Virus record (IMG/VR): IMGVR_UViG_2895427314_000002
Location: 1-64,000 of that record
Strand: one strand, 5' to 3'
DNA length: 64,000 nt
Source: a virus
Taxonomy: Duplodnaviria > Caudoviricetes
Part shown: positions 5,276 through 59,530 of the stretch, piece after piece
How positions within the stretch are numbered: position 1 is the stretch's first letter
Layout: every line of letters starts with the position of its first letter
Notes under the pieces: generated by a model
Databases searched by the model: none
The model's input: the letters and a program-made list of their open reading frames with translations, nothing else
Told to the model about the DNA's origin: nothing
Program-made: the position numbers and the translations under genes

Positions 5276-5538
5276 CAGGGCCGCCACCAGCGGCGACGAG
5301 CGGCGCGGGCGCGGAAACGCGCCTCGCCGTCCGGGTCGCCACCGTACGGGCACCGCACCCGCAGACGGGGATGCGGCGGCACGACGCCGACCGCCCAGTG
5401 CGAAGCCGCCTCGGCCGCGCCACGGCTGATGTTGCACGTGGCGTACGCGGGCGGCTCGTCACGGTCCGGCATCTCGCCCGGCCACACACCCCAGCCGTCC
5501 CCCCACCAGGCGACCGTCCACACCTGCACGTCATCCAC
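5272..5538 (-). CDS. Small Trp-rich protein, probably leaderless
   Basis: GTG 5538 lies 7 nt after a minus-strand TACGAT; 88 aa VDDVQVWTVAWWGDGWGVWPG... Confidence 0.5.
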   Translation of the reverse strand: MDDVQVWTVAWWGDGWGVWPGEMPDRDEPPAYATCNISRGAAEAASHWAVGVVPPHPRLRVRCPYGGDPDGEARFRARAARRRWWRPC

Positions 5539-5542
5539 GCAT

Positions 5543-5583
5543 CCGATCGTACGACCCCGCCCACCAGCGAGCGGGGCCATTCC
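5543..5583. repeat. Imperfect direct repeat copy 2
   Basis: CCGATCGTACGACCCCGC...GCGGGGCCATTCC. Confidence 0.75.
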
Positions 5584-5610
5584 AGCTACGTCACGAAAGG
5601 CAGGAGAGCA

Positions 5611-6225
5611 GTGGCCAACGCTGCGATCCCCATCCATCTGGCCAACGCGCCCACGCACAACGGGATGGTCATCCCGTACATCGCCCTCCGGCACGCCGAC
5701 GGCACCCCCGAGTTCGGGCAGATCGACCACAACCGCGTCGCCGAATGCCTCACCGGCCGTCTCTGCCAGCTCTGCGCCCAGGAACTCGCCGACGCCGCGG
5801 TCCTCATGGCCCGGCCGCAGGACTTCGGCGCCGGATACACCCCCGAACCCGCTCAGCACCCCGAGTGCGCCGCCTACTCAATCAGAGCCTGCCCCATGCT
5901 GTCGGGCCGGCTGCACCGCCACCGCGACCGGACCCGGCCGCAGCGGCGCCAGTGCACGATGGCGGCGGGGTGCTGGTGCGGCCAGCCGTACGAGCCCGAC
6001 ACCGACGCCATCGTCCGCTCCGGCCGGGCCGCGACGCCGTGGTACTCGGTGCGGTTCCCGATGGACGAGTACAGCCTGGAGATGTCGGCCAGGAAGGGGC
6101 CGCGCGGCATCTCGCTCGCCCTCGTCAACGCGAAGATCCGACTCGTCGCATGGGGTGACCCCGACCAAGCCGATCTGGGCCGCGTCCTGGTGTACGGCCT
6201 GCCGATCCCCGGAGCGCCGAGCTGA
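5611..6225 (+). CDS. Conserved actinophage Cys/His-rich (Zn-binding) protein
   Basis: LCQLC...EPAQHPECAAYSIRACPML; RBS AGGAG. Confidence 0.75.
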   Translation: MANAAIPIHLANAPTHNGMVIPYIALRHADGTPEFGQIDHNRVAECLTGRLCQLCAQELADAAVLMARPQDFGAGYTPEPAQHPECAAYSIRACPMLSGRLHRHRDRTRPQRRQCTMAAGCWCGQPYEPDTDAIVRSGRAATPWYSVRFPMDEYSLEMSARKGPRGISLALVNAKIRLVAWGDPDQADLGRVLVYGLPIPGAPS

Positions 6226-7409
6226 TGTACGTCGTCGTCTCCTACGGCATGGGCGCGGACTCGACCGCGCTCCTCGTGGAATGGCTCGAACGGCCAGCCT
6301 CACGCCCTCGGGAACTACTGCCGGACCTGTCGAACCTCATCGTCATCACCGCACAGCCCGGCCAGGAATGGGTCGAGACGGCCATGCTGGTCGAGCAGCA
6401 CATCTACCCCCTCCTGGCCAAACACCGAGTCCGCATGGTGCAGGTCGCCCGCGCCGGCCCGTACGAGCGCGACGGCATCGTGGTCCTAGACGACACCCGC
6501 GAGCCGATCCTGTGCCTCACCACCGGCGGTACCTACACTCTGCCCGGCGAGATGACCAGCAACGCGACCGTGCCACAGTCCGGCGGCCGACGAACGCATT
6601 CGATCAAGTTCAAAGGCTGGGCCATCGACCAGTGGATGACGCAGACCATTGGTGACGAGCCGTACATCCACGTTCTCGGCTACGAGGCCAACGAACTGGA
6701 ACGCGTGCTGCGTGACGGGCCGCTCGGGCTTCCGAACCGCATCCCCATCTATCCGCTCGTCACCTGGGGGTGGGATCGGGACGACTGCGAGTGGTTCCTG
6801 TGGGACCACTTCAAGGTCTGGTGGCCCAAGTCAGCGTGCGTGGCCTGCCCCTTCTCCTTCTCCCTCGGCAGCCGGGCAGAGTCGATCCGCCGCTTCCAGC
6901 GCAACCCCCACCAAGGAGTCGAAGCGCTCGTCATGGAATACCTCGCCGTTGCCGTCAACCCGCTCCAGGGACTGCTCGCGGGCAAACAGTTGTATCACCT
7001 GCTCGCCTCCACGCCGGGCAGCGGTCCGCTTCTGGCTCTATTCGAGCAGCAGCTCAACGACATGCCGTGGGCTGTGTACGACGTGCGGCGCGCGTACGCC
7101 GCGAGAGGCGGAGACCACACCAAGCGCGGCACCACCCGCCGGAGTCTCGCGCGGCTTGCGGTCGGCAGCCGCGCCGAAACGGTCGCGCGCCTCGAACGCG
7201 CCGCGCATCTGCGCGGGTGCCGCCTCGACATTGGCAGCGATGGCCGGTTCCGCCGGGTGTGGTGGCGCCATCGCGAGCTGTTCTATCCCACCGCCCAGCA
7301 CCTGCTCACGGCAGGCCCGGACCTCGCCGACGACAAGACGCTGCCCGCCTTCGCCGAAGCGTGGCGGGCCGGCCTGCGTGGCGCCCCTCAACTCTCTCTC
7401 GCGATCTGA
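6225..7409 (+). CDS. PP-loop (adenine nucleotide alpha-hydrolase / PAPS-reductase-like) protein
   Basis: VVSYGMGADSTALL PP-loop; YPLVTWGWDRDDC and KSACVACPF motifs. Confidence 0.7.
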   Translation: MYVVVSYGMGADSTALLVEWLERPASRPRELLPDLSNLIVITAQPGQEWVETAMLVEQHIYPLLAKHRVRMVQVARAGPYERDGIVVLDDTREPILCLTTGGTYTLPGEMTSNATVPQSGGRRTHSIKFKGWAIDQWMTQTIGDEPYIHVLGYEANELERVLRDGPLGLPNRIPIYPLVTWGWDRDDCEWFLWDHFKVWWPKSACVACPFSFSLGSRAESIRRFQRNPHQGVEALVMEYLAVAVNPLQGLLAGKQLYHLLASTPGSGPLLALFEQQLNDMPWAVYDVRRAYAARGGDHTKRGTTRRSLARLAVGSRAETVARLERAAHLRGCRLDIGSDGRFRRVWWRHRELFYPTAQHLLTAGPDLADDKTLPAFAEAWRAGLRGAPQLSLAI

Positions 7410-7421
7410 CCGGAGGCCCTC

Positions 7422-7595
7422 ATGACATGCCACCACCTGTTCCATCACCCACAGACCTCCACCGAGCGGGACGCGATCGTCCAGCAGTTGAACTACTGCC
7501 GCAGCATCGGCGACGGCCAGGGCGTGCTGGTCGCGCTCGTCCAGCTCACCGAGCCCTGCTCCTCGCCGGAGTCGGACGATGAGGGGGCCGAATGA
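7422..7595 (+). CDS. 57-aa hypothetical protein (not in ORF track)
   Basis: RBS GGAGG, ATG 7422 MTCHHLFHHP..., ATGA overlap with methyltransferase start. Confidence 0.6.
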   Translation: MTCHHLFHHPQTSTERDAIVQQLNYCRSIGDGQGVLVALVQLTEPCSSPESDDEGAE

Positions 7596-9580
7596 GCCGC
7601 CGCGTCAAGCAGAAGCCGCGCCGCACCGCATCCCATCGCCCGGCCGTGCACAAGCGCCGATTCCGCCACGACGAGTTAATCGCGTGCGACCTCTTCTCCG
7701 GGTTCGGAGGGCTCACGAAGGGAGCCGAACTCGCGGGGTTCACCACGATCGTCGCGGCGAACCACAATGAGTACAAGGTCTACGTCCACGAGGCCAACAA
7801 CCCGACTGCCGAGCACTGGATCGCGGATCTGGTGGACCCGGAGTCCTCCGACTACCACTCCGTCCGCGACCTTCCCCCCGCTGATCTTCTGCTTGCGGGC
7901 GTGTCCTGTGTGAACCACTCGCAGGCCAACACCAAGAAGGCGTACGAGCAGGGCCTTGCGCTGTTCGAGCTCGACGACCCCGAGTTCGAGGAACGGGTAA
8001 CACGGTCGGAGCGCGACCGGGCCACGGCCAACTGCGCGCTCCACTACGCCGCCGAGCATCACCCTCGGATGATCCTCATCGAGTGCACCACCGAGCTCTT
8101 CTCATGGGGGCCGGCGGTGCCGGGCAAGAAGTACGGCGACGGCACCACCTACAAGTGGTGGCTCAAGCAGTTTGGGCTGCTGGGCTACAAGGGCAGGGTG
8201 CTCTACCTGAACTCGATGTTCTTCGACGTCCCGCAGTCCCGCGACCGGGGCTACTGGATCTTCTGCGACAAGCGCCTGCCCACCCCGGACCTGGACCACC
8301 GGCCCGAGTCGTGGTGCAGCTTCGAGGGCAAGATCGTACAAGCTGTATGGACGTGGAAGACCGGCATCCCGCCCACCGGCAGCGTCCGCTACGGCAAGCA
8401 GTACGAGTACCGGTGCCCCTCTTGTCGGCGGATCGTGATCCCGCCGTACGCCCCGTCGATCAACGCGCTCGACCTCTCCAACCTGGGCACGAAGATTGGT
8501 GACCGGCCGCTCAAGGAGTTCACGGACAAGAAGACCGGCAAGACCATCATGAGCCGGCTCGCACCCTCCACCATGGCTCGCGCCGAGCGGTGCAGGCAGA
8601 AGTTCGCCGAGTTCCCCGCAGTGCTCATGCCCGCTAAGGCCGCGCACGGGTCCGAGCGCCACCCGTGGCAGCCTCTCTCGACGCAGACCAGTCAGCAGGA
8701 GACGGCTGTCCTCTCGACGGGCACGCTCATCGCCGCCGCGGGCAACACTTACGAGCGGCCGGGTTCCGACTGTCGCACGCGTGACCTGAGCGAACCGCTG
8801 CCGTCTCAGACCGGAACCAACACGCAGGCGCTGCTCACACCCCCGGTTGCCCTGACAGGGCAAGTGATGGCCGCGCACCGGCACAACGGCGACGGCCAGC
8901 ACATTACTCAGCCGATGGACACCGTCACGACCACGCACGAGAAAGCGGTCCTGCTCGCCGCCGTGGACAACTTCCAGGGCGGACCGCGCGGTCTGGATGA
9001 GGCGCTGCCTACGCAGGTCGGCTCGGAGACGCTGGCGCTGCTCTCGGCCGGTGTCGTTCCGTTCCGGCAGAACACCCTTCCGACGTCGCACGCCGAAGCG
9101 ATGCCGACCGTCACGTCCGATCAGGTGCCAGGGCTGCTCATGGCGGCTGGCCAGATCCAGTTCAACCAGGGCATCGATCGGCGGGTGGCAGGCGTGGACC
9201 AGCCGCTCAAGACCGTCATCGCAGACAACACCATGGCCCTGCTTTTCTCCGGCTGGTACAAGGAGAACGGCAAGACCGCTCCGCACCCCCTGAGCGACGC
9301 GCTCGGAACGGTCACCGCCCACGACACGACGGCGCTCCTCCACGCCCAATGGACCGAGGTCCTCGCGAACCTGAAGCTGGAGGACTGCTACCTCCGCATG
9401 ATGCTCAAGGAGGAGGTCGGGGCTGGGTGCGGCTTCGACGTCAGCCTCGGCAACCACGAAGGCACCTTCATCGTCTGGGGTTCCGCACGCGACCAGATCG
9501 ACGGTTACGGCAACGCCGTCAGCCCGGCGGTCGGCCGGTGGATCTGCGACCGACTCCGCATCGCCCTTCACGGCGCCTAA
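7592..9580 (+). CDS. DNA cytosine-5 methyltransferase with long repetitive variable region
   Basis: Motif I DLFSGFGG, IV GVSC, VI IECT, VIII PQSRDR, X YGNAV. Confidence 0.9.
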   Translation: MSRRVKQKPRRTASHRPAVHKRRFRHDELIACDLFSGFGGLTKGAELAGFTTIVAANHNEYKVYVHEANNPTAEHWIADLVDPESSDYHSVRDLPPADLLLAGVSCVNHSQANTKKAYEQGLALFELDDPEFEERVTRSERDRATANCALHYAAEHHPRMILIECTTELFSWGPAVPGKKYGDGTTYKWWLKQFGLLGYKGRVLYLNSMFFDVPQSRDRGYWIFCDKRLPTPDLDHRPESWCSFEGKIVQAVWTWKTGIPPTGSVRYGKQYEYRCPSCRRIVIPPYAPSINALDLSNLGTKIGDRPLKEFTDKKTGKTIMSRLAPSTMARAERCRQKFAEFPAVLMPAKAAHGSERHPWQPLSTQTSQQETAVLSTGTLIAAAGNTYERPGSDCRTRDLSEPLPSQTGTNTQALLTPPVALTGQVMAAHRHNGDGQHITQPMDTVTTTHEKAVLLAAVDNFQGGPRGLDEALPTQVGSETLALLSAGVVPFRQNTLPTSHAEAMPTVTSDQVPGLLMAAGQIQFNQGIDRRVAGVDQPLKTVIADNTMALLFSGWYKENGKTAPHPLSDALGTVTAHDTTALLHAQWTEVLANLKLEDCYLRMMLKEEVGAGCGFDVSLGNHEGTFIVWGSARDQIDGYGNAVSPAVGRWICDRLRIALHGA

Positions 9581-9582
9581 AG

Positions 9583-9600
9583 GTTGGCGGTTACGCCAAC
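9583..9600. promoter_or_regulatory. 18-bp palindrome GTTGGCG-GTTA-CGCCAAC
   Basis: Perfect copy between stop 9580 and start 9627. Confidence 0.85.
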
Positions 9601-9626
9601 GACCTACCAACCATGAAAGAGGAACC

Positions 9627-10271
9627 ATGTCGATCAGCGCCACCACTGCTCGGACGATCGCTGACCTGGTCAACGCCACCGGCCTGCCCGGCAACACCGA
9701 CATTCGCCTCCTTCCCAACCTGAAGGCCCAGGCTCGCAACTGCCTCCTCCGGAAGGGCATCCGCACCCTCGCCATCCTGGCCGAGCACGACGAACTGACT
9801 CTCACGGACATTCGGCTCTTCGGTGACGCATGCCTGGCCAATGTCCGCGTCGTCCTGTCCGGGTTGGCTGAGCGGCACGCGGACATCATGCGGAACGCGC
9901 CGCCCTGGTATCAGGAGATCGCCGACCTCGCCGGAGCCCTCAGGGACGGCTACGACGAGCACCTCATCACCTCCGTCCTCGCCCGCATCACCGAGGCGGG
10001 CGCCCCCGGCTACCTACTGTGCGTGTGGGCCGAGCACGACGCGGCCGGGTACGGCGGCAACTCGGACATCTACATCGACGCCGACCACGGCGGCGGCCTC
10101 TGCCACGTCGGCGGAGACCTGTGGGCCTGGCTGTCCCAGCACCCCCTCACGCCCGGCACACCAGCCACCCCCGGAGACCCGGTCACCTGGAAGGGCAACC
10201 CGGCAGGGTTCCGCCTGGCCGACCTCGCCGTGGACGACGGCGGCCACAACTTCGCCCGCACCAACGGCTAA
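9627..10271 (+). CDS. RNA polymerase alpha C-terminal-domain-like protein fused to an unknown domain
   Basis: LKAQARNCLLRKGIRTLAIL...LTDIRLFGDACLANV resembles RpoA CTD (LSVRSYNCLKRAGI.T...L.KIRNFG.KSL.EI). Confidence 0.7.
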   Translation: MSISATTARTIADLVNATGLPGNTDIRLLPNLKAQARNCLLRKGIRTLAILAEHDELTLTDIRLFGDACLANVRVVLSGLAERHADIMRNAPPWYQEIADLAGALRDGYDEHLITSVLARITEAGAPGYLLCVWAEHDAAGYGGNSDIYIDADHGGGLCHVGGDLWAWLSQHPLTPGTPATPGDPVTWKGNPAGFRLADLAVDDGGHNFARTNG

Positions 10272-10334
10272 CGCCTCCCGGCCGCCGGCGGTCACCGGGT
10301 TGGCGGCGGTCATTCCACCACCAAGGAGAAACCG

Positions 10335-10640
10335 ATGGAACGCAGCGTCCCCTACGACGGCCGGGTCTACACCGTGCGCGTGCACCACGTGGAAGGTCCT
10401 GACCCGCTGATCGTCATCCTGTCCGCCACCTGCACCACCGATCCGAACAACATCGGCTACTGCGGATACGTCCGAGTCCCGATCGGCTACCGGCAGGGCT
10501 GGCGGTGGGCGCAGGTAGGCGACATCGAAAGCGACCCCGACGCCTGCCTCGAAGCGGCCAGGGCGAACTCGTGGAGCTCGTCCACTCCCGACTCCGCCAC
10601 CGTCGCGCAGTTGGAGTGGGCGCGCGAGCACGTCCAATGA
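10335..10640 (+). CDS. Hypothetical protein
   Basis: RBS AAGGAG; coupled to next gene. Confidence 0.7.
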   Translation: MERSVPYDGRVYTVRVHHVEGPDPLIVILSATCTTDPNNIGYCGYVRVPIGYRQGWRWAQVGDIESDPDACLEAARANSWSSSTPDSATVAQLEWAREHVQ

Positions 10641-11281
10641 GCCGCCAACTGGCCCTACGCATGTCCCCGGTGGTCGCGTTCTACCAGGTGGACGTGGATG
10701 AGGTCGCGGAGCTGCTGATCCGCTGGCGTCACCCGCTTCACCTCCCCAGCGACGAGCACCCCGAGGGCCGACCGTACAAGCGCCCGTACGGCTCCCTGGG
10801 GTTCGTCATGGAGGACCGCGGCCGGGTCGCCGCCGCCGTGATCCTGGCCAGCACCGTGAACACCTCGGTCTGCAAAGACCGGGGCCTGCACCGCTACAAC
10901 ACGGTGGACCTAGCCAGAATCGCCCGCTCGCCGGACCGGCGCGACGAGCAATGCCTGCGGGCCGTCCTGCGCATCACCCGCCTGTACCTCGTCCCGCTGT
11001 GGCTCGGCACCTACACCGGGTGGGACGCCCGCTCGGCCGAGAAGTCGAGTGGCCAGCCGCGCATCGAGGCGGTGTCGTCCACCTCGCTGCCCGGTACCCC
11101 CGGCAACCTGTACCGCTTCGACGGCTGGGAGAAGCTCCGCACCTCGAAAGGCCCCATGGGCGGCCCCCGCCAGAAGCCGTCCGCCGCGAACGAGATCGCG
11201 GACGGGGCGCGCGGCCTGTGGGTCTACCGCTACCCCGAACCCCTCACCACCACCACGAAGGAGATCGCCCATGTCGGATAA
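10637..11281 (+). CDS. Mom/XF1762-like GNAT-fold DNA-modification protein
   Basis: N-terminal WRHPLH, VDLARIAR, C-terminal PGNLYRFDGW resembling Mom-family GxxYxAxGW. Confidence 0.55.
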   Translation: MSRQLALRMSPVVAFYQVDVDEVAELLIRWRHPLHLPSDEHPEGRPYKRPYGSLGFVMEDRGRVAAAVILASTVNTSVCKDRGLHRYNTVDLARIARSPDRRDEQCLRAVLRITRLYLVPLWLGTYTGWDARSAEKSSGQPRIEAVSSTSLPGTPGNLYRFDGWEKLRTSKGPMGGPRQKPSAANEIADGARGLWVYRYPEPLTTTTKEIAHVG

Positions 11282-12338
11282 CAGCGACATCGAATGGCTC
11301 CGAGGCCCTGACGGGCGACGCGGATCCACCTGGAACTTCGTCATAGGCTGCACGAAGCGGTCGCCCGGCTGCGGCATGCCCCGCTGGGAAGGCGACAAGC
11401 GAGGCGGCTGCTACGCCATCATCCAGGCGACCATACGGGCTGGGAACCCGAACCCGAAGGTGGCCACCGCGTTCGCCGGCCTCACCCACCGCACCGAGCA
11501 CGGCCGCGACTGGACCGGCCAGGTGAACATCCTGCGCGACCGCCTGGACAAGCCACTCAAGTGGCGGGAACCGCGCCGCGTATTCGTCAACAGCCTTTCC
11601 GACCTGTGGGATGACCAGGTCCCCGAGGACGTGATCGCGCACGCGTTCGCGGTCATGGCCATGACCCCCCAGCACACCTACCTCATCCTGACCAAGACGC
11701 CCGGCCGCATGCGGGCGATGCTCCGTTCAGACGACTTCTGGAAGGCAGTCGGCGAGGCAGGCCGCGGCATCGCGCTCGCGAAGGTGCGGGGCAAGTACCG
11801 GTCGGCGTCGGCCATGCAACTCACCTCTGACTCCAGCGCAGACGGGTACTGGATGCCGGTTCGGCCGCTGCCGAACGTGCAGATCGGTGTGTCGGTCGAG
11901 GACCAGAAGTGGGCCGACCTTCGTATCCCCATCCTGCTCGACACCCCGCACATCGCCGTTCGGTGGATCTCGGCGGAACCGCTGCTCGGTCGCATCGTCC
12001 TGCGAAGCGAATGGCTGGACCCCTGGAAGAACCCCGCGACGCTCGACTGGGTCGTGGCCGGCGGCGAGTCCGGACCCCAGGCTCGTCCGATGCACCCCGA
12101 CTGGGCGCGCGGCCTGCGTGACCAGTGCGTCGCGGCGGGCGTGCCGTTCTTCTTCAAACAGTGGGGCGCGTGGACACCGTCTGGCATGGTCGGCGTCGGC
12201 AACCAGGGTCCGCGCTTCGCCTACATCGGCGACCCCGTGGACGAGCACGGCCACCGCATCGTCATGGAGAACGTCGGCAAGCACCAGGCGGGCGCCGTCC
12301 TCGACGACGAGACGTGGACGGAGTACCCCGATGCGTGA
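11271..12338 (+). CDS. DUF5131 (phage Gp37/Gp68) radical-SAM-like protein
   Basis: STWNFVIGCTKRSPGC...CYA, VFVNSLSDLW, LILTK, WVVAGGESGP, FFFKQWG. Confidence 0.9.
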   Translation: MSDNSDIEWLRGPDGRRGSTWNFVIGCTKRSPGCGMPRWEGDKRGGCYAIIQATIRAGNPNPKVATAFAGLTHRTEHGRDWTGQVNILRDRLDKPLKWREPRRVFVNSLSDLWDDQVPEDVIAHAFAVMAMTPQHTYLILTKTPGRMRAMLRSDDFWKAVGEAGRGIALAKVRGKYRSASAMQLTSDSSADGYWMPVRPLPNVQIGVSVEDQKWADLRIPILLDTPHIAVRWISAEPLLGRIVLRSEWLDPWKNPATLDWVVAGGESGPQARPMHPDWARGLRDQCVAAGVPFFFKQWGAWTPSGMVGVGNQGPRFAYIGDPVDEHGHRIVMENVGKHQAGAVLDDETWTEYPDA

Positions 12339-12672
12339 GACCAAGCGCGTCCAGGTCACCGGGGACCTCTTCCACCCCCGCCTCCCGGACGGGGCGGTCT
12401 GGTGCGGCCGGGAAGGGCCGCACCTGAAGCGGTCGCCGTACGCGAACCCACACACGCTCTCCGGCGCCGGCTGCTGGCGGCCCGGCTGCGACGGCCGGGT
12501 GCACAGCCGACGCGAGGTCCTCGACCTCTACCGCCAGCACCTCCACTCGCACCCGGAGCTCGTCGAACGTGCCCGCGCCGAGCTGGACGGGCAGGCGCTG
12601 GCATGCCGGTGCAAGCTCGATGAGGCGTGCCACGTGGACCTGCTGCTCGCTGCGATGGCGGCCGGACGGTGA
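12331..12672 (+). CDS. DUF4326 domain protein
   Basis: AVWCGR...SPYANP...ELDGQALACRC...CHVDLL. Confidence 0.85.
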   Translation: MRETKRVQVTGDLFHPRLPDGAVWCGREGPHLKRSPYANPHTLSGAGCWRPGCDGRVHSRREVLDLYRQHLHSHPELVERARAELDGQALACRCKLDEACHVDLLLAAMAAGR

Positions 12673-12676
12673 CCCG

Positions 12677-13596
12677 GTGGAGGTCTTCTTCATGGGGGCC
12701 AACACCGGGTCCTGGCTCCGGCGTGCGGACGTGGGCGTGCCGCTGTGTGTCGCTTACCGGCACCTCGCCGACCTCAAGGGCGAACTGCCGCGCGCCGTCG
12801 TGCCGTGGATGCTGGACTCGGGCGGATTCAACCAGGTGACCACGCACGGCGGATACACGACCTCGCCGCGCGACTACGTGCGGGCGGTCAAGCGCTTCGC
12901 CGACGAGATCGGCAGTCTACGGTGGGCTGCCTGCCAGGACTGGATGTGTGAACCGCCCGCTCTGGCCAGCTCGGGCGCTTCCGTGCGGTGTCATCAGCGC
13001 TGGAGCATCGAGAACTACCTGAGCTTGCGCTTTCTAGAGGGTGCGCCGGACGGTAGGTCGCTGTTCGTTCCGCCGCTCCAGGGCGACGGCCGAGACGCGT
13101 TTCTGCGGCACGTGGACGAGTTCGACCGGTACGGCATTGACCTGACGAGAGCGCCCTTGGTCAGTGTCGGCTCGGTGTGCCGGATGCAGTCCACCCTCGA
13201 GATCGGCCGTGTCCTACCGCTCTGGCCAGTCTCGGCCTGAAGATGCACGGGTTCGGCGTGAAGACTCTCGGGCTGCGCCGGTTCGGGCATCTCCTCGTCT
13301 CGGCGGACTCCATGGCGTGGTCTACCAACGCCCGGAAGAACGCCGACGACTTCAGAATCGACGTCCCAGAGCACACCCATCCCCGCGGCGGCAAGACCTG
13401 TTCGAGCTGCCCTGTCTACGCCCTGGCGTGGCGGAAGCGGATGCTGGCCAGCATCCCGCCCCCACCCAAGACCGTCGCTTTGGAGCTGCCCGCTCTGTAT
13501 GCCGGCCGCCAGGTGCTGCCCCGCTTCAGCGACATTCCTAACTCGGCCGTGCGACATCGGCCGAGCATCCCCATCTACGGAGGGAGAACCCCATGA
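12677..13596 (+). pseudogene. TGT/DpdA-like deazapurine DNA-modification protein, frameshifted near 13216
   Basis: WMLDSGGF, CQDWMCEP, PPLQG, VGSVCR in one frame; KMHGFGVK, SADSMAWS in the next; one missing base at GTCCTACCGCT would fuse them. Confidence 0.75.
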
Positions 13597-13940
13597 CCCA
13601 GCTCAACGACACCCCCGCTACCACAGCGGCCGAGGTCGAGGTGCCTCCGGTCCAACCCGCCGACATCCTCGCCTACCTCGCGCGCAGCGTCGCCCGCGAC
13701 CTCACACAGCTCACCCTTGCGACCGCGGACGGGGTGCCGGAGCTCATCGCCGCGGCGGCCGAGGACGCGGCGCGGGGCGTGGACGCGTTCATGGCCACGC
13801 TCATGGAGGCCGAGGGCTTGACCATCGAGCAGGCTCAGACCCGTGCCGCCGGGCTCATCGCCGAGCAGGGAGAGGTCGAAACGCGCGGCACCCGGCTGGG
13901 CGAACTGATGGACGAACTCGGGCTGAGAGCGGCCCCATGA
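13593..13940 (+). CDS. Hypothetical protein
   Basis: RBS GGAGGGAG; ATGA coupling. Confidence 0.7.
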   Translation: MTQLNDTPATTAAEVEVPPVQPADILAYLARSVARDLTQLTLATADGVPELIAAAAEDAARGVDAFMATLMEAEGLTIEQAQTRAAGLIAEQGEVETRGTRLGELMDELGLRAAP

Positions 13941-18853: not shown

Positions 18854-19123
18854 GAAACCCCCTGTGGTTGCGCTAATTCGGTGTCCCCTGTGGGGCGCGA
18901 TCACAGACATCGGCTTGCATGGCCGTAGTGACGATACGGGGTCACCGTGACGTGACGCCAGGGTCTCCGGACCGGCGCTCGGAAGAGGAAAGCACTCGTC
19001 GTTGCTCTTGGGCACATCGTGCGGCACCATGGCGGACACGATCACCATTGTGACTTCCCCCCAGGTGGGTTACTGATCGTGCCATCACCACCCGCTCATA
19101 CCTGGGAGAGAGGGGGACACCAC

Positions 19124-21910
19124 ATGCGGTTTGAGGTGCTGGGGCGTCTCACCGTCCACGCCGAGGGCCAGCAGATCGCCCTGTCTCCTCTCAAACGCCG
19201 CCTCGTCGCGGCGCTGCTGCTGGCGGGCCCAGCGGGCATCCTCGCCGAAGAATTGATGAAGGCTCTGTGGGGCGACGACTGGGGCCGCGAAGGGGGCCTA
19301 AAAACTCAGGTGTCTGAGCTGCGTCTCCTCCTGCCGGAGCGTATCCCCGCGGGCGGCCCGGCCGGCTACCGCCTCGATCTCCTGCCCAGCGATAGCTTCG
19401 ACCTGAACGAATACCGGGCTCTGCGCAGCGACGGCCAGGCGTTCGCGGAACGCGGCGACCACGCGAGGGCGGCGAACGTGCTCTCCCGGGCGCTGGCCCT
19501 GTGGGGTGAGCCGCCGTTAGCGGACGCGCCCGGCGGCGGTGGGACGCTGGTGGTGGCGCGTGACGACCTGCTGGCCGACCGCAGAGACACGGTGATGGCG
19601 CTGCTCCAGGCCCGGCTACAGGTCGGGCAGCATCGCGAGATTGTGAGCGCGGTGCGCCACGAACTGATTCACGATCCGCTGTCGGAGCAGCTGCATGCTC
19701 TGCTGATGACCGCCCTGCACCGCAGTGGCGAACGCATTCGGGCGCTCCAGCACTTCGAGGCCGTCAGCACGCTGCTCGTACGGGAAACAGGCGTCGGCCC
19801 TGGCGCTGGCCTGCGCCACCTCCGGGAGGAGATCGCCAACGACGAGGACCGCCTGGTGACCAGCAGTTCCCGCGCATCGGCCGCGCCGCTCGCCTGGCCG
19901 CCGCCCGCGCAGCTCCCCCCTGACGTCACCGACTACACCGGGCGCGAGGAGGAGGTGCAGCGGCTCGTCGGCTATTTCACCTCGGCCGAGAAAGGCACCG
20001 GCGTCCGGATCGCCTCGATCACGGGCCCCGGTGGCGTGGGGAAAAGCGCGCTGGCGGTCCATGTCGCGCATCTGGTCCGTCACGCGTACCCGGACGGCCA
20101 GTTGTACGTCCGCGTCGAGGCGTTCTCAGAACGGCCGCGTAATGTCAGCCAGGTCCTCGCTGAACTGCTCGGCTCGCTCGGAGTCCACCCGCAAGACCTT
20201 CCTCGTACTCCGGCCGAGCGCACCGCGCTGCTGCGCTCCTTGCTCGCCAACCGGCGCGTGCTGCTCGTTCTGGACGACGTGCTGGGATCCCACCAGGTCA
20301 ACCCGCTGTTACCGGGCACGGCCGGGTGCGGCGTCATCATCACCAGCCGCAGGCACCTGGCCGAAGGCGCCATGATGCGCCTGCGGCTCCACCCGCTTCG
20401 CCCCAACGACTCCCTGCACCTGCTTGGGGAGATCATCGGCCGCGACCGCATCGCCTCCGACACAGGGGCCGCCGCTGCCCTGGCGGCTGCGTGCGACGGC
20501 TTCCCGCTCGCAATCCGGGTGGCGGGGGCGCGCCTGACAGCACAGCCACACTGGAGTCTGCGGTACTTCGCCGACCGTCTGGCCGAGCTCGACTCCGACG
20601 AGCTGGGGGTGTCCGCGAGCATCGCCGCCGACAGCTACCGCGCCCTGGAAGAAGACGCTCGCCGCGCGTTCCGCGCCGTGGCGCTGGCCGGCCCAGGTGA
20701 TTTCCCGAGCTGGGTCGCCACGATGCTGATGGGGGCCGACGCCGAGAAGCCGCTGGAAACGCTGATCACGCACAGTCTCGTCGCGCCCGCCGGCACCGAC
20801 GCCCTCGGCCGCCCGCGCTACCGCCAGCACGGGCTGTTGCGCGCCTTCGCCGCTGATCGGCTGGCCGAGCGTGTCGCTGAAAACGACGCGGTGGTGGACC
20901 GGCTCCTCCTTGGCTGGCTCGAACTGGCTGACCTAGCCGACTCGCTGATCCCGCATGAGCCGAACAACCCTCCTCCGGCCCGGCTCAGCGCGTCCCTGTA
21001 CGCACCGCCTCTGGCGCGGCGTCTCATCCAGGCTGACCCGCAGGCATGGTTTGCCTCCGAGATCGGGAACCTCCTGGAGGTGGTCCGGTTCGCCTGCCAC
21101 GAGCTTCGCGTCCAAAGCGCCACCAGTGTCGCGCTGCGCATCCATTCGTACCTGTTTTGGGCCCGCCGCAGCCGGGCGGCCCAGGACATGTGGCGACTCA
21201 TCATGCAGGCCGCCACCGCCGCCGGTGACGCACGGCTGGCGGCCGAAGCCCGGCTTCGGCTCGCGATCCTCATCATCCGGTCACCTGGAGGGGGCGAGCG
21301 GGCGATACCTATGCTCGATCTCAGCTCCGAGGTGTTCCGATCGATAGTCGATCGGCGCGGCCTGGCACGATCGCTGGCTGCTCGGGCCTGGGCGGGCGAG
21401 CAGGTGCACGGGGAGGGGCGTGCAGAACATCTCGAACGGGCAACCGCCGACGCCGTCCAGGGCCTGCACATCGCCCAGACAGCACGCGACATCCACACGG
21501 AGGTGGCCTGCCTGCGCGTCCTGGGGTTCGTGCTCGCCCAGCGCGGCCTGTACGACGAGGCGCTCACCCGGTCCCAGGAGGCGGTGAGGCTGGCCCAGAC
21601 GATGCCGACCGGAACAGGGGAGCAGGCCTACCTGGCCTACACGCTGTGGATGATGGGCCGAGTCGAGCTGGCGGCGGGGAATTATGACGCGGTGCTCGAC
21701 CTCTGCAGGCGCCGCGTCGATCTCGTGAGCCCGCTCGGGCATGTGGCCGGCGACGCGACGTACCTGGAGATGGAAGGCGACGCCCTGATGAGGCTCGGCC
21801 GCCAGGGGGAGGCGGCCGAGCGGTACGCCGCAGCGGCTACGCAGTACGAGGGCGAAGGCACAGACCATCACGCCGAACGTTGCAAGCGCAAGTTCGCCGC
21901 GGTGACGTAA
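19124..21910 (+). CDS. AfsR/SARP-family regulator (wHTH-BTAD, NB-ARC, TPR)
   Basis: MRFEVLGRL; ALALWGEPPL; PAQLPPDVTDYTGR; Walker A GPGGVGKS; Walker B LLVLDD; IITSR; GFPLAI. Confidence 0.93.
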   Translation: MRFEVLGRLTVHAEGQQIALSPLKRRLVAALLLAGPAGILAEELMKALWGDDWGREGGLKTQVSELRLLLPERIPAGGPAGYRLDLLPSDSFDLNEYRALRSDGQAFAERGDHARAANVLSRALALWGEPPLADAPGGGGTLVVARDDLLADRRDTVMALLQARLQVGQHREIVSAVRHELIHDPLSEQLHALLMTALHRSGERIRALQHFEAVSTLLVRETGVGPGAGLRHLREEIANDEDRLVTSSSRASAAPLAWPPPAQLPPDVTDYTGREEEVQRLVGYFTSAEKGTGVRIASITGPGGVGKSALAVHVAHLVRHAYPDGQLYVRVEAFSERPRNVSQVLAELLGSLGVHPQDLPRTPAERTALLRSLLANRRVLLVLDDVLGSHQVNPLLPGTAGCGVIITSRRHLAEGAMMRLRLHPLRPNDSLHLLGEIIGRDRIASDTGAAAALAAACDGFPLAIRVAGARLTAQPHWSLRYFADRLAELDSDELGVSASIAADSYRALEEDARRAFRAVALAGPGDFPSWVATMLMGADAEKPLETLITHSLVAPAGTDALGRPRYRQHGLLRAFAADRLAERVAENDAVVDRLLLGWLELADLADSLIPHEPNNPPPARLSASLYAPPLARRLIQADPQAWFASEIGNLLEVVRFACHELRVQSATSVALRIHSYLFWARRSRAAQDMWRLIMQAATAAGDARLAAEARLRLAILIIRSPGGGERAIPMLDLSSEVFRSIVDRRGLARSLAARAWAGEQVHGEGRAEHLERATADAVQGLHIAQTARDIHTEVACLRVLGFVLAQRGLYDEALTRSQEAVRLAQTMPTGTGEQAYLAYTLWMMGRVELAAGNYDAVLDLCRRRVDLVSPLGHVAGDATYLEMEGDALMRLGRQGEAAERYAAAATQYEGEGTDHHAERCKRKFAAVT

Positions 21911-32198: not shown

Positions 32199-32506
32199 CC
32201 TACACCCGCCTGACCCACCTCCACGGATGCTTCGACCCCAGCCGGGAGTACACCGTCGAAGCCAGCATCATGATCCAGGACGAGCAGCAGACCAGCCAGG
32301 GCTTGCGCGCGGTGCTCACCCTCGACGACGGCACCGCCCTGATGACCGCGCTCGTAGAGCCGCCTCTGTACGCGGAGGTGGGCGCCGACCGGCTCCTGCC
32401 GAGCGAGGACAGGCTGCGGTTCACCGGCCGCCTCGACCTGGAGGAGAACGAGCCGCGCCTGATCGTGCAGACCGTGCACGACCTCTCGAAGAGGGACACG
32501 CGGTGA
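32195..32506 (+). CDS. Stand-alone OB-fold nucleic-acid-binding protein (DnaE C-terminal-like)
   Basis: AVLTLDDGT...PPLY...FTGRLD...PRLIVQTV. Confidence 0.65.
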   Translation: MTYTRLTHLHGCFDPSREYTVEASIMIQDEQQTSQGLRAVLTLDDGTALMTALVEPPLYAEVGADRLLPSEDRLRFTGRLDLEENEPRLIVQTVHDLSKRDTR

Positions 32507-32967
32507 CCGAGCAGAACATTCCCCAGCCGTACGACCCACTCGCCGTCTCACACGCCAAGCAGGCCATCACTGCCGCCCTCCACGAAGACGACGACACCAC
32601 GGCCCAACTCGTCGCCACGATCGTGAACGAGACCGGCCTGCCCGGCATCCTCGATGCCGTCTTTGTGTGGTGCGCAACCATCCACGCCCGCATCGGGCTC
32701 CCGTTCGGCGTCATACTCACCCTCACCTACATCCACCCGGAGACCGGGGAACCGATCCCCGAGACGGAGGCAGACCCCGCGCTCATCTGGGCCAGCCACG
32801 TCATCCAGGCCTACGTGGCCCGCGACAAGCCCCGGTTCGACAGTCTGCTCAAGGACATGCTGGACGGCGATCCCGGACGGCTCGCCGCCCAGCTCATCAC
32901 GATGGTCGAGCACGTGGCCGCGCACATCAGGCTCGCCAGCCTGCGCAGCACAGCGGAGCTGTCGTGA
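32503..32967 (+). CDS. Hypothetical protein
   Basis: GTGA coupling at both ends. Confidence 0.7.
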   Translation: MTEQNIPQPYDPLAVSHAKQAITAALHEDDDTTAQLVATIVNETGLPGILDAVFVWCATIHARIGLPFGVILTLTYIHPETGEPIPETEADPALIWASHVIQAYVARDKPRFDSLLKDMLDGDPGRLAAQLITMVEHVAAHIRLASLRSTAELS

Positions 32968-34724
32968 CGCACCATGTCGTCCAGATGAGCGGCGGCCTGG
33001 GATCGTTCTGGGCCGCCGTCTTCGCCGTCCTGGTATACGGCAAGGAGAACGTCGTCCTTCTGTTCGCCGACACCCTGTGGGAACACCCCGACACGTACCG
33101 CTTCCTAGGGCAGGCCAGCGAACACCTCGACATCACCCCGATCATCGTGTGCGACGGCCGCAACCCGTTCCAGGTGTATTTCGACCAGCACTTCCTCGGA
33201 AACTCCCGGATCGCGCCGTGCACGAAGGAACTCAAGCAGAAGCCCTGCCGCCGCTGGCTGGAGGAGCACTGCGACCCGGCCGACACCATCCTGTACGTCG
33301 GCCTCGACGCGGCCGAGGAGCGCCGCCGGCCCGGCGTCATCAAGGGATGGACGCCGTGGCGAGTCGAGTTCCCCCTGATGGACGACAAGACCTGGGACAA
33401 GAAGCGGATGAAGACCGAGTGCGCCAAGCTCGGCATCACCATCCCCCGCATGTACGAACTGGGGTTCTCCCACAACAACTGCTTGCACCCGGACACCCGC
33501 TACATCACGAGCGAGGGCATCAAGACCCTCCGCGAGACGTGCGGACAGACCGTCAAGGTCCTGGGCCGCGGCGGCGGCTGGCGGGAGGCGGAGATCCGGT
33601 CGTTCGGCGAGCAGCCCACTTACGAGCTGCGGCTGCGACGGTACGACGACGAGATGACCGTCATCACCACGGGGGACCATCTCTGGCCTGTGCGCAAGCG
33701 GGCTGGACGGAACGCCCACGAGTTCCGGCACACGCTCGTGCTCAGTGCAGGAGACCGCATCGCGGGCATGTATGGCCACGTCCGGAGCAACGTGGTGCCG
33801 TCCACGATCGGCATCATGGCCGGGTTCACCTTCGGCGACGGCACCGCTCCCGCCGTCAACGGGCAGAACCAGCCGGCCCGCGCCTATCTGTGTGGCGACA
33901 AGGACAAGGCGATGCTGCCGTACTTCGCGGGCTGCCGGATCAAGGAGGACAGACCCCGTGTCCTGAAGGTCCTGGACCTGCCGAGGTCGTGGAAGCAACC
34001 CCCGCCGCTGGAGGAATCCCAGTCGTACCTGTACGGATGGCTGGCCGGGTACTTCGCCGCTGACGGCAGCATGAGCGGCGGCAGCGCGGTCATCTACTCG
34101 GCGAACCAAGCCCGGCTCGAGACCGTGCAAGATGTGGCGGCCAGGATTGGCATCGCGACGGGCCGCATCCGCACCGCGCACCGGACCGGGTACAACACCG
34201 AGCGGAGCCCGATCTACAGCGTGACGCTGGTGATGGCCACGCTCCGGGAGGACTTCTTCCTCCTGCCCCACCACCGGGAGAAGTTCCTCGCCCGCGAGAA
34301 TCCCCAACGACCAGGTGACTGGCAAGTGGTCGAGGTCGTCCCCACCGGGCGTGTCGAGGAGGTCATGTGCGCGGTCGTCCCTGACGGCCACGTGTTCACC
34401 CTCGACGGCAACCTGCTCACGCACAACTGCCAGGGCAGCTGTGTCCGGGCGGGACAGGCTCAGTGGCTTCTCACGCTCCGCGAGTTCCCGGAGCGGTACG
34501 CCCTGGCCGAGGCCGAGGAGCAGCGCTTCCGCGAGGAGCACGGCAAGGACGTGTCGATCCTCACCGAAACCGTGAACGGCGCGAAGTGCACGCTCACGCT
34601 CAGGAAGCTGCGGCTGCGCGCGGAGGTGGGCGTGATCCGTCTCCTCGCGCCTGGATCTGTTCAGCGCCGTCGTCACATGACCGTGAAGACAGAGCCGTTG
34701 TTCGAGATGGGGTGCCCGGCATGA
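32964..34724 (+). CDS. PAPS-reductase-family (PP-loop) protein containing an intein
   Basis: VVQMSGGLGS, LFADTLWEHPDTYRF, CTKELK, PRMYELGFSHNN|C...|CQGSCVRAG. Confidence 0.88.
   Translation: MTHHVVQMSGGLGSFWAAVFAVLVYGKENVVLLFADTLWEHPDTYRFLGQASEHLDITPIIVCDGRNPFQVYFDQHFLGNSRIAPCTKELKQKPCRRWLEEHCDPADTILYVGLDAAEERRRPGVIKGWTPWRVEFPLMDDKTWDKKRMKTECAKLGITIPRMYELGFSHNNCLHPDTRYITSEGIKTLRETCGQTVKVLGRGGGWREAEIRSFGEQPTYELRLRRYDDEMTVITTGDHLWPVRKRAGRNAHEFRHTLVLSAGDRIAGMYGHVRSNVVPSTIGIMAGFTFGDGTAPAVNGQNQPARAYLCGDKDKAMLPYFAGCRIKEDRPRVLKVLDLPRSWKQPPPLEESQSYLYGWLAGYFAADGSMSGGSAVIYSANQARLETVQDVAARIGIATGRIRTAHRTGYNTERSPIYSVTLVMATLREDFFLLPHHREKFLARENPQRPGDWQVVEVVPTGRVEEVMCAVVPDGHVFTLDGNLLTHNCQGSCVRAGQAQWLLTLREFPERYALAEAEEQRFREEHGKDVSILTETVNGAKCTLTLRKLRLRAEVGVIRLLAPGSVQRRRHMTVKTEPLFEMGCPA
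33480..34427 (+). mobile_element. Intein with LAGLIDADG homing endonuclease (316 aa)
   Basis: Starts CLHPDT, block B TGDH, IMAGFTFGDG and WLAGYFAADG, ends LLTHN followed by Cys. Confidence 0.93.
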
Positions 34725-52102: not shown

Positions 52103-53086
52103 CTATTCGTCCACGGTCAGCTTGTCAATGGCGGCCTGGCGGTCGGCGTCGGTGGGCAGGGTGTAGCGGCGGGCAGTCTCGAGCGAGTGGCCCAGCAGCT
52201 CTGCGATAGTGACGACATCCTCACCTTCGCGAGCAAGCTTCGTGCCGAGGGTGTGCCGCAGGACGTGGCTGGTGAAGTCTTCGTCGCGGCCGACCTCGAT
52301 CCCGGCCCGGTCAGCGATGCCGTTCAGTACGTCGGTGGCGGAGCGGGCGGAGAGCCGTCCACCACGGGTGTTGAGAAACAGCGCCTTAGTCTTGTCGGCG
52401 CCGCGCAGGCTGGCTCGCTCGGTCAGGTACGTCTCCAACTCGGTACGGAGCTTGACGTGCATGTTGACCTCGCGGTACTTGCCGTTCTTGCCCATGCGAA
52501 TGATGAGCACGCCCTTACGGGCGCTGATGTGCAAGTCGTCGATGTCGAGCGCGACGAGCTCGTGAATGCGGGGGCCGGCGTAGAAGGCGGTGTAACCCAT
52601 GGCGCGGTCGCGGGGTGCGCACAGCGCCGTCTCGCGCAGGAATCGCAACTGGGCTCGCTGATCGAGCGAACGCGGAGCGAGGTTGGGAAGCGCGGTGCGT
52701 TTGGCGGCTGCGGGGCCGAGGCCGAGACGGCGGTTGAAGTCGTCTATGGCGGTCAGGTGCGCGTTGACGGTGGTGGGCTTGCGCTTGAGCACGGTCAGGA
52801 GATGGGCGCGGTAGTCCCGGGCGGCCCAGTCGCGGGTGGCGGGGTCGATGAGCGGGTCGCCGTCGAGGTCGGTCGCGTCGAGCCAGGCGAGGTACTGGCG
52901 GACGCGAGAAAGGTAGTTCCGGCGGGTGTCGTCGTCGAGCCGGAGAAGTGGGTCATTGACGGCGGTTTCATAGGCGGCGTAGACGTCGGTGTAGCGGTCG
53001 GGTACGGGTGTGGCGGTGGCTCCTGGACGTCGGCGGCTGGGGCGCTCATACGTTGTGGGATCTTGGTCTCTGATATCGGAAGTCAT
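52103..53086 (-). CDS. Tyrosine recombinase (Xer/TnpI-like with N-terminal SAM-like domain)
   Basis: AGPRIHEL (R), MGKNGK (K), HVLRHT (H-x-x-R), LGH, RRYT (Y). Confidence 0.93.
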   Translation of the reverse strand: MTSDIRDQDPTTYERPSRRRPGATATPVPDRYTDVYAAYETAVNDPLLRLDDDTRRNYLSRVRQYLAWLDATDLDGDPLIDPATRDWAARDYRAHLLTVLKRKPTTVNAHLTAIDDFNRRLGLGPAAAKRTALPNLAPRSLDQRAQLRFLRETALCAPRDRAMGYTAFYAGPRIHELVALDIDDLHISARKGVLIIRMGKNGKYREVNMHVKLRTELETYLTERASLRGADKTKALFLNTRGGRLSARSATDVLNGIADRAGIEVGRDEDFTSHVLRHTLGTKLAREGEDVVTIAELLGHSLETARRYTLPTDADRQAAIDKLTVDE

Positions 53087-53169
53087 ATTGGTGTCCTGTT
53101 GACCTCGGAGAATCGAAATATCGGAAGCCGTACCTGGAGCGCGCTTCTTATATTCACAAGTATCTGAAG
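53073..53169. repeat. Three spaced direct repeats ATATCGGAAG (putative recombinase site)
   Basis: 53073, 53118 and 53160 (GTATCTGAAG) in AT-rich DNA upstream of the recombinase. Confidence 0.55.
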
Positions 53170-53180
53170 TCTGGCATTTC

Positions 53181-53210
53181 GTTGGCGGTTCCGCCAACGA
53201 AAGCTACGAT
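53181..53210 (+). promoter_or_regulatory. Palindrome GTTGGCG-GTTC-CGCCAAC overlapping a sigma70-type promoter
   Basis: TTGGCG (53182) -17 bp- TACGAT (53205). Confidence 0.75.
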
Positions 53211-59419: not shown

Positions 59420-59530
59420 CGTCAGAAATACCGCTTCGTGCTTGCCGCGCCCATGAATCTGATGATGCCCCGACAGCCTGCCGTGCGGACGCTCAGTGAT
59501 GGGATCGTAACTCGGAATGAGGAGGCGCTC

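Follow-up and report, generated by a model that had tools for sequence, protein, structure and literature searches.

A candidate mosaic DNA-modification cassette with a frameshifted dpdA in an actinomycete prophage

Do genes for several DNA-modification-type domains that lie together in a phage operon form one pathway, or are they separate modules that share a location? This question is raised by positions 6225–13596 of a 64-kb stretch of DNA, referred to here as the window, with which a 91,645-bp IMG/VR provirus record begins (IMGVR_UViG_2895427314_000002). A first-pass annotation made from the letters of the window had placed six gene types in that region (a PP-loop/PAPS-reductase-like protein with a CxxC, a C5 cytosine methyltransferase, a Mom-like GNAT, a DUF5131 protein, a DUF4326 protein and a TGT/DpdA-like gene) and had proposed layered modification of cytosine, adenine and guanine, possibly leading to an uncharacterised base. 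In this study, we found that the region is probably a mosaic anti-restriction or DNA-modification cassette, made up of independent modules and carried by a temperate phage that has integrated into an actinomycete genome. Finding several modification-type domains in an operon is not enough to show that they form a pathway.

Phage DNA-modification cassettes determine which of the defences directed at its DNA, restriction among them, a phage is able to evade, and they are a source of new nucleic-acid chemistry. Most of the cassette considered here is familiar, namely its C5 methyltransferase, its singleton DpdA and its Mom-like GNAT. The block formed by DUF5131, DUF4326 and DpdA in Nonomuraea prophages bears on the role of singleton DpdA proteins in hosts without preQ0, and there are two more leads: an uncharacterised actinobacterial GNAT family for which the tRNA-dependent DNA acyltransferase Mom is the nearest solved structure, and a C5 methyltransferase with seven target-recognition-like repeats.

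Operon layout and conservation

The reported clustering of the six gene types was confirmed, as all of them are on the + strand within 6225–13596 and belong to a single + strand gene series, 5371–13940, in which each start overlaps or abuts the preceding stop. Overlaps of the ATGA/GTGA type were found at 6225, 7592, 10637, 11271, 12331 and 13593. Three further genes lie inside the cluster, encoding a protein of 57 residues, an RpoA alpha-CTD-like protein and a protein of 101 residues. The G+C content of the window is ~69%, and such a high G+C content produces many spurious open reading frames; genes were selected by their third-position G+C, and the selections agree with the NCBI gene calls. 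The closest relatives of the region are prophages in five Nonomuraea genomes (L005, L006, L007, L008 and L026), one of which is also an IMG/VR record. L026 is Nonomuraea basaltis contig NZ_VCJS01000218.1, a low-coverage SPAdes contig. The features identified are as follows, and the family models listed for the C5 methyltransferase, DUF5131 and DUF4326 uphold the identities that had been proposed for those three genes.

5371..6225, + strand: conserved upstream gene with no named function, overlapping the PP-loop gene at its stop; no Pfam or PHROG match; orthologues of 67–79% identity at the same position in L005–L008 and L026
6225..7409, + strand: PP-loop/PAPS-reductase-like protein of 394 residues, a description by fold only (PHROG_424, E 1.9e-8)
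7422..7595, + strand: small conserved protein of 57 residues; orthologues in L005–L007 with 73–77% identity; no family match
7592..9580, + strand: C5 cytosine DNA methyltransferase of 662 residues (PF00145, E 3.9e-15)
9627..10271, + strand: protein of 214 residues with an RpoA alpha-CTD-like helix-hairpin-helix N-terminus, in a variable slot (PF03118, E 2.3e-5, just above the cut-off)
10335..10640, + strand: open reading frame of 101 residues; no family match; no tblastn match in L005–L030
10637..11281, + strand: GNAT-fold protein (by fold only) of an uncharacterised actinobacterial family, a facultative module
11271..12338, + strand: DUF5131 (Gp37/Gp68) protein (PF07505, E 1.7e-73; phrog_2045, E 2.5e-92)
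12331..12672, + strand: DUF4326 protein of 113 residues (PF14216, E 5.8e-13); its start overlaps the stop of the DUF5131 gene
12677..13240, + strand: N-terminal 187 codons of dpdA, frame A (PF23859 profile positions 4–179, E 8.5e-49), ending at TGA 13238–13240
13215..13216, + strand: 1-nt deletion that frameshifts dpdA, from DNA alignment with L005–L008 and L026
13234..13596, + strand: C-terminal part of dpdA, frame B, which is -1 relative to frame A (PF23859 profile positions 188–253, E 1.5e-19)
13593..13940, + strand: conserved downstream gene of 115 residues; its start overlaps the end of dpdA frame B; orthologues in L005, L006 and L026; no family match

Comparison with the Nonomuraea prophages revealed that the genes for the C5 methyltransferase, DUF5131, DUF4326 and DpdA recur in all five. 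Their order is also kept: three unknown genes, the PP-loop gene where present, the 57-residue gene, the methyltransferase, a variable slot, DUF5131, DUF4326, DpdA and the 115-residue gene. The PP-loop gene is found in three of the five relatives and the GNAT gene in two (L007 and L008), and the slot between the methyltransferase and DUF5131 has a different content in every Nonomuraea genome. The 214-residue protein, to which NCBIfam rpoA models match weakly, is full length in L008 only, and only its N-terminal part is present in L006 and L026. The co-occurrence in relatives that a joint modification system would predict thus holds for the methyltransferase and the three genes from DUF5131 to DpdA, but the PP-loop and GNAT genes are facultative and the parts of the cluster are found separately outside this lineage.

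The arrangement suggests a cassette in the distal portion of a long + strand operon with translational coupling. Its conserved frame would consist of the three unknown genes, the 57-residue gene, and the C5 methyltransferase, DUF5131, DUF4326, DpdA and 115-residue genes. A first slot, before the methyltransferase, would carry the PP-loop/PAPS-reductase-like protein, and a second, from the methyltransferase to DUF5131, would carry the alpha-CTD-like protein, the 101-residue open reading frame and the Mom-related GNAT. The modules would act independently, and not as steps of one pathway.

Co-occurrence outside the lineage was examined using profile hidden Markov models built from the loci and run over six-frame translations. 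None of 16 other viral loci with DUF5131 had DpdA, and one had a weak DUF4326 neighbour. Similarly, neither DUF5131 nor DUF4326 was present in any of 21 DpdA loci of Streptomyces and Actinomadura.

In most of those DpdA loci (16 of the 21) a PF01507 PAPS-reductase gene directly flanks DpdA, either upstream or downstream; Streptomyces examples include L010, L011, L015–L017, L025, L028 and L029, at ~8–13 kb of each locus. A specific link between DpdA and this PAPS reductase was considered and rejected, because 74 of 78 control viral loci with a PF01507-type gene, from hosts with 37–73% G+C, had no DpdA, and the other four were those closest to the Streptomyces type. The PF01507-type gene is therefore a common phage gene. 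In 12 of the 78 viral contigs (L062, L067, L069, L074, L076, L086, L088, L094, L095, L109, L129 and L130; 55–66% G+C), none of which has DpdA, a member or distant relative of the PP-loop family was observed within ~3 kb of a PF01507-type gene, two different PP-loop proteins thus recurring as a pair. One of those matches has an E-value of 1e-149 and the rest are between 1e-14 and 1e-20. We found no description in the literature of DpdA with a PAPS reductase, DUF5131 or DUF4326, nor of the GNAT family.

The dpdA frameshift and the readings it bears on

The gene that had been annotated as TGT/DpdA-like does belong to the DpdA family PF23859, but it is not one gene in the window. Its two pieces, both of which exceed the PF23859 gathering score (cut-off 27 bits), sit in different frames and are split by a 1-nt deletion. 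A tblastn search with MarkPhew gp43 located the switch of frame between 13213 and 13234, and DNA alignment showed that one base is missing at 13215/13216, where the window reads GTCCT/ACCGC (the slash marking the gap) and the five relatives read GTCCTGACCGC or CTCGGCGC, with GTCCTGACCGC in L026. Frame A runs into the TGA at 13238–13240, yielding a product of 187 residues. The part that is kept holds the LDSGGF and QDWMCE motifs, and the part that is lost after the break holds HGFGVK, ADSMAWS with the presumed nucleophile Asp, and the CSSCPVYALAWR motif. Conservation across 11 intact DpdA homologues was found for CSSC...YALAWR, HGFGVK and ADSMAWS, and the C-terminal part of the window gene is 68–83% identical to the Nonomuraea relatives.

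The DpdA of S. Montevideo has three invariant active-site Asp residues, D95, D130 and D256, and its nucleophile Asp256 and His181 are essential elements of the active site (PMC10164549). Candidate equivalents of the Asp residues, assigned from motifs, are in LDSGGF, QDWMCE and ADSMAWS, the third of which comes after the frameshift. The counterparts of Asp256 and His181 are both likely to fall after it, judging from these motifs. Searches of the PDB with the two DpdA halves and with a DpdA profile (phmmer and hmmsearch) returned nothing, and thus no match to 7UI4. DpdA is most likely non-functional in the window copy, because the 1-nt deletion is predicted to yield a truncated product that lacks HGFG, the Cys cluster and the Asp of ADS, which is presumed to be the nucleophile.

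An assembly or sequencing error at this site, with an intact dpdA and a fully functional cassette, is an alternative that we consider rather less probable, though not negligible. It would account for a single 1-nt lesion between two halves which are 72–75% identical to intact orthologues and keep all motifs, and for the lack of a second lesion in dpdA. In addition, dpdA is frame-broken in the low-coverage contig L026, which could likewise be an error. However, the deletion is outside any homopolymer, the neighbouring operon genes are full length relative to their orthologues and have no frame breaks, and the NCBI annotation also ends the open reading frame at residue 187, the 3' half of dpdA being the sole long uncalled gap of the operon in the NCBI calls. 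With the rest of the operon frame-intact, the assembly is not generally indel-prone, and we judge the deletion likely to be a real mutation rather than an assembly error. Programmed frameshifting was rejected, there being no slippery heptamer upstream of the TGA at 13238, and the five relatives being in frame at this site. The dpdA break in L026 (L026:10001-10890) is a separate one, near 10243, and represents either a second decaying copy or the result of low-coverage assembly. As its dpdA is frameshifted, the window is a poor model for a guanine arm of the cassette, for which an intact relative, such as the prophage of Nonomuraea wenchangensis CGMCC 4.5598 (contig NZ_FOHX01000027.1), would be a better subject.

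If a DpdA of this type were active, what would it insert? Phage 7-deazaguanine systems combine DpdA with FolE, QueD, QueE and QueC. In the whole 91.6-kb record, no match at E<=1 was obtained for QueC (PF06508), PTPS/QueD (PF01242) or GTP cyclohydrolase I/FolE (PF01227) in searches in which controls were matched and QueE was not searched for separately. The reported lack of folE and queCDE genes is thus extended from the window to the full record for folE, queD and queC, and the preQ0 genes that were sought, which distinguish the 7-deazaguanine systems, are missing from this element.

The window DpdA instead resembles singleton DpdA proteins, its N-terminal 179 residues being 46–49% identical to those of ~400 mycobacteriophages. 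The mycobacteriophage gene either stands alone beside the integrase (MarkPhew) or is inserted in reverse orientation among the structural genes (Colbert, cluster B1). Singleton, or orphan, phage DpdA proteins constitute group 3 of Hutinet et al. 2019, an example being that of Mycobacterium phage Orion (PMC6884629). The singleton proteins of Orion, other cluster B1 phages and Weiservirinae such as MarkPhew have in common with the window protein their PF23859 family, an actinobacterial host, the lack of FolE, QueD, QueE and QueC in the phage, and the motifs LDSGGF, QDWMCE, HGFGVK, ADS.AWS and C..C..YAL.WR. Unlike a lone, moron-like singleton dpdA, the gene in the window is frameshifted and stands next to DUF4326 and DUF5131, where a modification operon ends. 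No 7-deazaguanine was detected in Orion DNA by liquid chromatography-tandem mass spectrometry, the pathway being present in neither the phage nor its host (PMC6884629). Supply by the host has been raised as a possibility for phages with a singleton DpdA, the function of which is acknowledged to be an open question (PMC6884629).

The two neighbours of dpdA are each members of recognised families. DUF5131 is listed as a subgroup of the radical-SAM superfamily (SFLD/RadicalSAM.org; PMC9477430), and almost all of 22 aligned homologues have a Cys triad of the form C-x6-C-x2-C. The triad of the window protein is C27-x6-C34-x12-C47, with a 10-residue in-frame insertion, GMPRWEGDKR, between the second and third Cys (residues 35–44; window 11373–11402). 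This insertion is present in none of the 22 aligned homologues, including an orthologue with 73% identity. In L026, DUF5131 was matched over residues 92–300 only. DUF5131 also matches the PADLOC "phage defence candidate" components PDC-M41B and PDC-M30B (E ~1e-50), so that members of this family are found both in phages and in candidate defence systems of hosts. The DUF4326 protein scored 49.7 bits against a cut-off of 25 for PF14216 and has orthologues in all five Nonomuraea relatives. DUF4326 is predicted to be a rhodanese-phosphatase-like domain (PMC9503650) and has been linked to ADP-ribose systems and DNA modification (PMC9503650, PMC7824862).

A second alternative is that these genes form one coordinated pathway, in which a singleton DpdA would insert a base other than preQ0, or one that is elaborated later on the DNA; DUF5131 (radical-SAM-like), DUF4326 (phosphatase-like) and the PP-loop ATPase would produce or complete this base, resulting in a new guanine modification. 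All five Nonomuraea relatives have the DUF5131, DUF4326 and DpdA triad, without variation and closely packed, and members of the PP-loop family are repeatedly found near DpdA in two genera, with a homologue of 519–545 residues directly abutting DpdA in L015 and L017. In addition, the phage has none of the Que genes QueC, QueD and FolE, and most related hosts are without a clear QueC, so that an active DpdA would need another substrate, and the acknowledged open role of singleton DpdA proteins (PMC6884629) also speaks for this reading. Nevertheless, we regard a coordinated pathway as unlikely. The triad is restricted to a single lineage of close relatives, every component occurs elsewhere without the others, and the Orion-type DpdA is a lone gene in >390 mycobacteriophages, with Orion DNA containing no 7-deazaguanine (PMC6884629). 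Moreover, dpdA is broken both in the window and in L026, and the DUF5131 protein of the window has the insertion in its Cys triad. For the triad itself, functional coupling and shared ancestry are inseparable, as the five relatives represent one lineage (DpdA 73–77% identical). A single pathway to an uncharacterised base received no direct support from our analyses.

More speculatively, the Orion-type singleton DpdA may not be a preQ0 transglycosylase and, with DUF4326, DUF5131 and possibly the PP-loop protein, may install a guanine-derived DNA base in hosts that lack preQ0, the window copy having been recently inactivated; we consider this doubtful. The least probable of the alternatives, which the first-pass annotation had raised, is that DpdA scavenges host preQ0 or an imported 7-deazapurine to give dPreQ0 in the phage DNA, with the other genes adding 5-methylcytosine and an adenine mark: membership of the DpdA family is strong, host supply was raised as a possibility by Hutinet et al. 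(PMC6884629) and one of the five genomes hosting related prophages has a clear QueC match (on a separate contig), but QueC had no match in three of them and a borderline partial match in a fourth, Orion with the same type of DpdA and a pathway-less host has no modification (PMC6884629), and dpdA is truncated in the window, all of which makes scavenging very improbable.

A cassette of independent modules remains the reading that we prefer, and several observations weigh against it. The 3' half of dpdA shows no further decay, and its frameshift could be an assembly error. The adjacency and partial overlap of the DUF5131, DUF4326 and DpdA genes in all five relatives point to possible functional coupling, and the location of a PP-loop family homologue no more than 10 kb from DpdA in seven of the 21 Streptomyces and Actinomadura loci hints at a link between these two. 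Furthermore, the multispecificity that we suggest below for the methyltransferase is drawn from repeat motifs alone. With regard to the layered modification that had been proposed, the cytosine layer is plausible given the intact motifs of the C5 methyltransferase and an adenine layer is possible given the Mom-related fold of the GNAT, but a guanine layer is unsupported in this copy given the frameshift in dpdA.

The methyltransferase, PP-loop and GNAT proteins

Formation of 5-methylcytosine is the sole activity of the cassette that can be confidently predicted, possibly at several sequence motifs. The C5 methyltransferase is also matched by phrog_116 (E 6.5e-35) and by PADLOC MTase_II, and motifs I, IV (with its Cys), VI, VIII and X are present as DLFSGFGG, GVSCVNHS, IECTTE, QSRDRGY and GNAVSPAV, respectively. 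Motif IV has SC and not PC. The protein is 80–82% identical in L005–L008 and only 27% identical in L026. Its variable region between motifs VIII and IX is unusually long and is filled by seven tandem repeats resembling target-recognition domains, each of ~32–40 residues (window 8657–9355; residues ~356–588), with the consensus (D/E)xP(L/M)xT(V/Q)T....ALL.

Multispecific C5 methyltransferases of Bacillus phages, of the SPR, phi3T and rho11s type, combine a single core with a variable region in which several short target-recognising units follow one another in tandem. They are phage-borne and presumably guard against several host restriction systems. The methyltransferase in the window resembles these enzymes in its C5 core (motifs I, IV, VI, VIII and X), its tandem units and its location in a phage, and differs from them in having seven repeats, SC in place of PC in motif IV, and an actinomycete host. 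Possibly, the window enzyme is likewise multispecific.

The description of the first cluster gene as PAPS-reductase-like with a CxxC stands for the fold and for the Cys pair, but not for the family. Models for PF01507, DndC and SspD gave no match: there was no Pfam match at E<=10, no NCBIfam match, and no match to PADLOC DndC, SspD or BrxP at E<=0.01, and PHROG_424 was the sole family match. Sequence searches of the PDB with the single sequence and with a profile yielded nothing meaningful, and none of 120 listed homologues has a functional name. An AlphaFold2 model based on an alignment of 34 homologues has a mean predicted local distance difference test (pLDDT) score of 93.7. Residues 1–224 of the model form a Rossmann-like alpha/beta PP-loop domain, for which the best solved match in an exhaustive VIA-align search was the PAPS reductase 7rge (Z 11.8, root-mean-square deviation [rmsd] 4.0 over 162 residues), followed by a second-best match with a Z of 10.4. 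NcsA (Z 10.4), GMP synthetase and TilS rank after the PAPS and APS reductases, within a range of Z 10–11.8, and QueC reached a Z of 8.0 only. Only N-domain matches were listed in that search, and residues ~225–394 constitute an extra C-terminal domain.

"PAPS-reductase-like" is, on the basis of this model, valid as a description of fold and not of family membership. The window protein shares the N-terminal alpha/beta PP-loop fold with PAPS and APS reductases and with PP-loop sulfurtransferases (CysH, NcsA/TtuA and DndC/SspD), and differs from the PAPS and APS reductases and from DndC/SspD by its additional C-terminal domain of 170 residues and by the lack of a match to a family model. Its N-terminal Gly/Ser-rich loop is SYGMGADS, in which S6, Y7, G8, G10 and S13 are conserved. 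In the alignment of homologues, C205-x2-C208 is invariant and C125 near-invariant, and [4Fe-4S] PP-loop thiolases also have three conserved Cys. By analogy, the window protein may act on a nucleic acid, either by adenylating or by thiolating it. The first gene of the element (L052:161-1345), which also encodes 394 residues, proved not to be a paralogue of the PP-loop protein.

For the GNAT at 10637–11281, the earlier designation as Mom-like was likewise sustained at the level of structure and not at that of sequence. The protein has no Pfam or PHROG match, and no match to Pfam Mom (PF25680) even at E<=10. It belongs to a family with at least 110 actinobacterial and viral homologues, none of which has a Pfam domain. 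Its AlphaFold2 model (pLDDT 90.1) has a GNAT fold, and a Foldseek search returned 282 PDB matches at E<=1e-3, those among the matches listed all being GNATs. The top-ranked structure in VIA-align was Mu Mom (8bv8_A; Z 13.4, rmsd 3.6), aligned over 166 residues spanning 1–203, the longest coverage obtained. The Z-score of Mom is within 1 of those of ordinary acetyltransferases, which amounts to a tie; the next structure has a Z of 12.9 over 141 residues. An hhalign comparison of the GNAT alignment with a profile of 25 Mom sequences was not significant (probability 1.4%, E 0.038 over 50 columns), nor were comparisons with Mom by BLASTP (E 2.1) or with Mu Mom alone by hhalign, and a sequence search of the PDB returned nothing.

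Mu Mom (PF25680; PDB 8bv8) is a Gly-tRNA-dependent adenine N6 carbamoylmethyl transferase, with the essential residues R111, S124, D149 and R151 and a helix-turn-helix-like insertion at 175–209 (PMC13219725). Mom and the window GNAT are both phage-borne, have the GNAT fold and share a local motif, [FY]-x-x-D-G-(x)-W ... GG ... AN, after beta-6. Comparison of motifs places R94 of the window protein, which is invariant and at the end of beta-4, opposite Mom R111, a plausible match. No evident equivalents of S124, D149 and R151 were found in pairwise and profile alignments, and the insertion after beta-6 has ~19 residues in the window protein (~172–190) versus ~35 in Mom. "Mom-like GNAT" is therefore valid as a description of the modelled fold, and the protein is not a member of the Mom family by sequence. 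Potentially, it acylates a nucleic-acid base as Mom does.

The surrounding element

The DNA of the window is also part of a 614-kb contig (VSEY01000001.1) in assembly GCA_008086045.1. Ordinary genes of the host (LacI, MFS, GntR, LysE and a hydrolase) extend to a point ~3.8 kb before window position 1 (L131:9652-10001), so the mobile element is longer than the IMG/VR record. Its identity as a phage is supported by RecE/RecT-like genes at 24.7–27.5 kb, by a tyrosine integrase at 52103–53197 on the minus strand, and by genes for terminase, an SPP1-type portal, minor capsid protein 2 and a P22-type coat protein at 63–73 kb. The HK97 capsid family PF05065 had no match, the coat protein being of the P22 type. 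A search for att sites using repeats between the left boundary and the record gave chance 14–18-mers only, and no tRNA genes were found in a search for the prophage ends. The sole tyrosine integrase is located mid-record, between an early-gene half (1–51 kb) and a structural-gene half (63–91 kb), a position that could reflect two tandem elements or an unusual layout.

Two other genes of the window that had been pointed out as possibly related to modification do exist, a second PAPS-reductase gene at 32463–34724 and an ABC/acetyltransferase-like gene at 59012–60631. The former has PF01507 and a LAGLIDADG intein (PF14528), and has no match to the profile of the PF01507-type gene which flanks DpdA in Streptomyces. 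Its extein matches the PADLOC model for SspD (E 7e-16), which is the PP-loop member of the Ssp system for DNA phosphorothioation. A gene for an AfsR/SARP-type regulator of 984 residues with BTAD, NB-ARC and TPR domains is also found in the element, at 18956–21910, with the modification operon on one side and the repressor region on the other.

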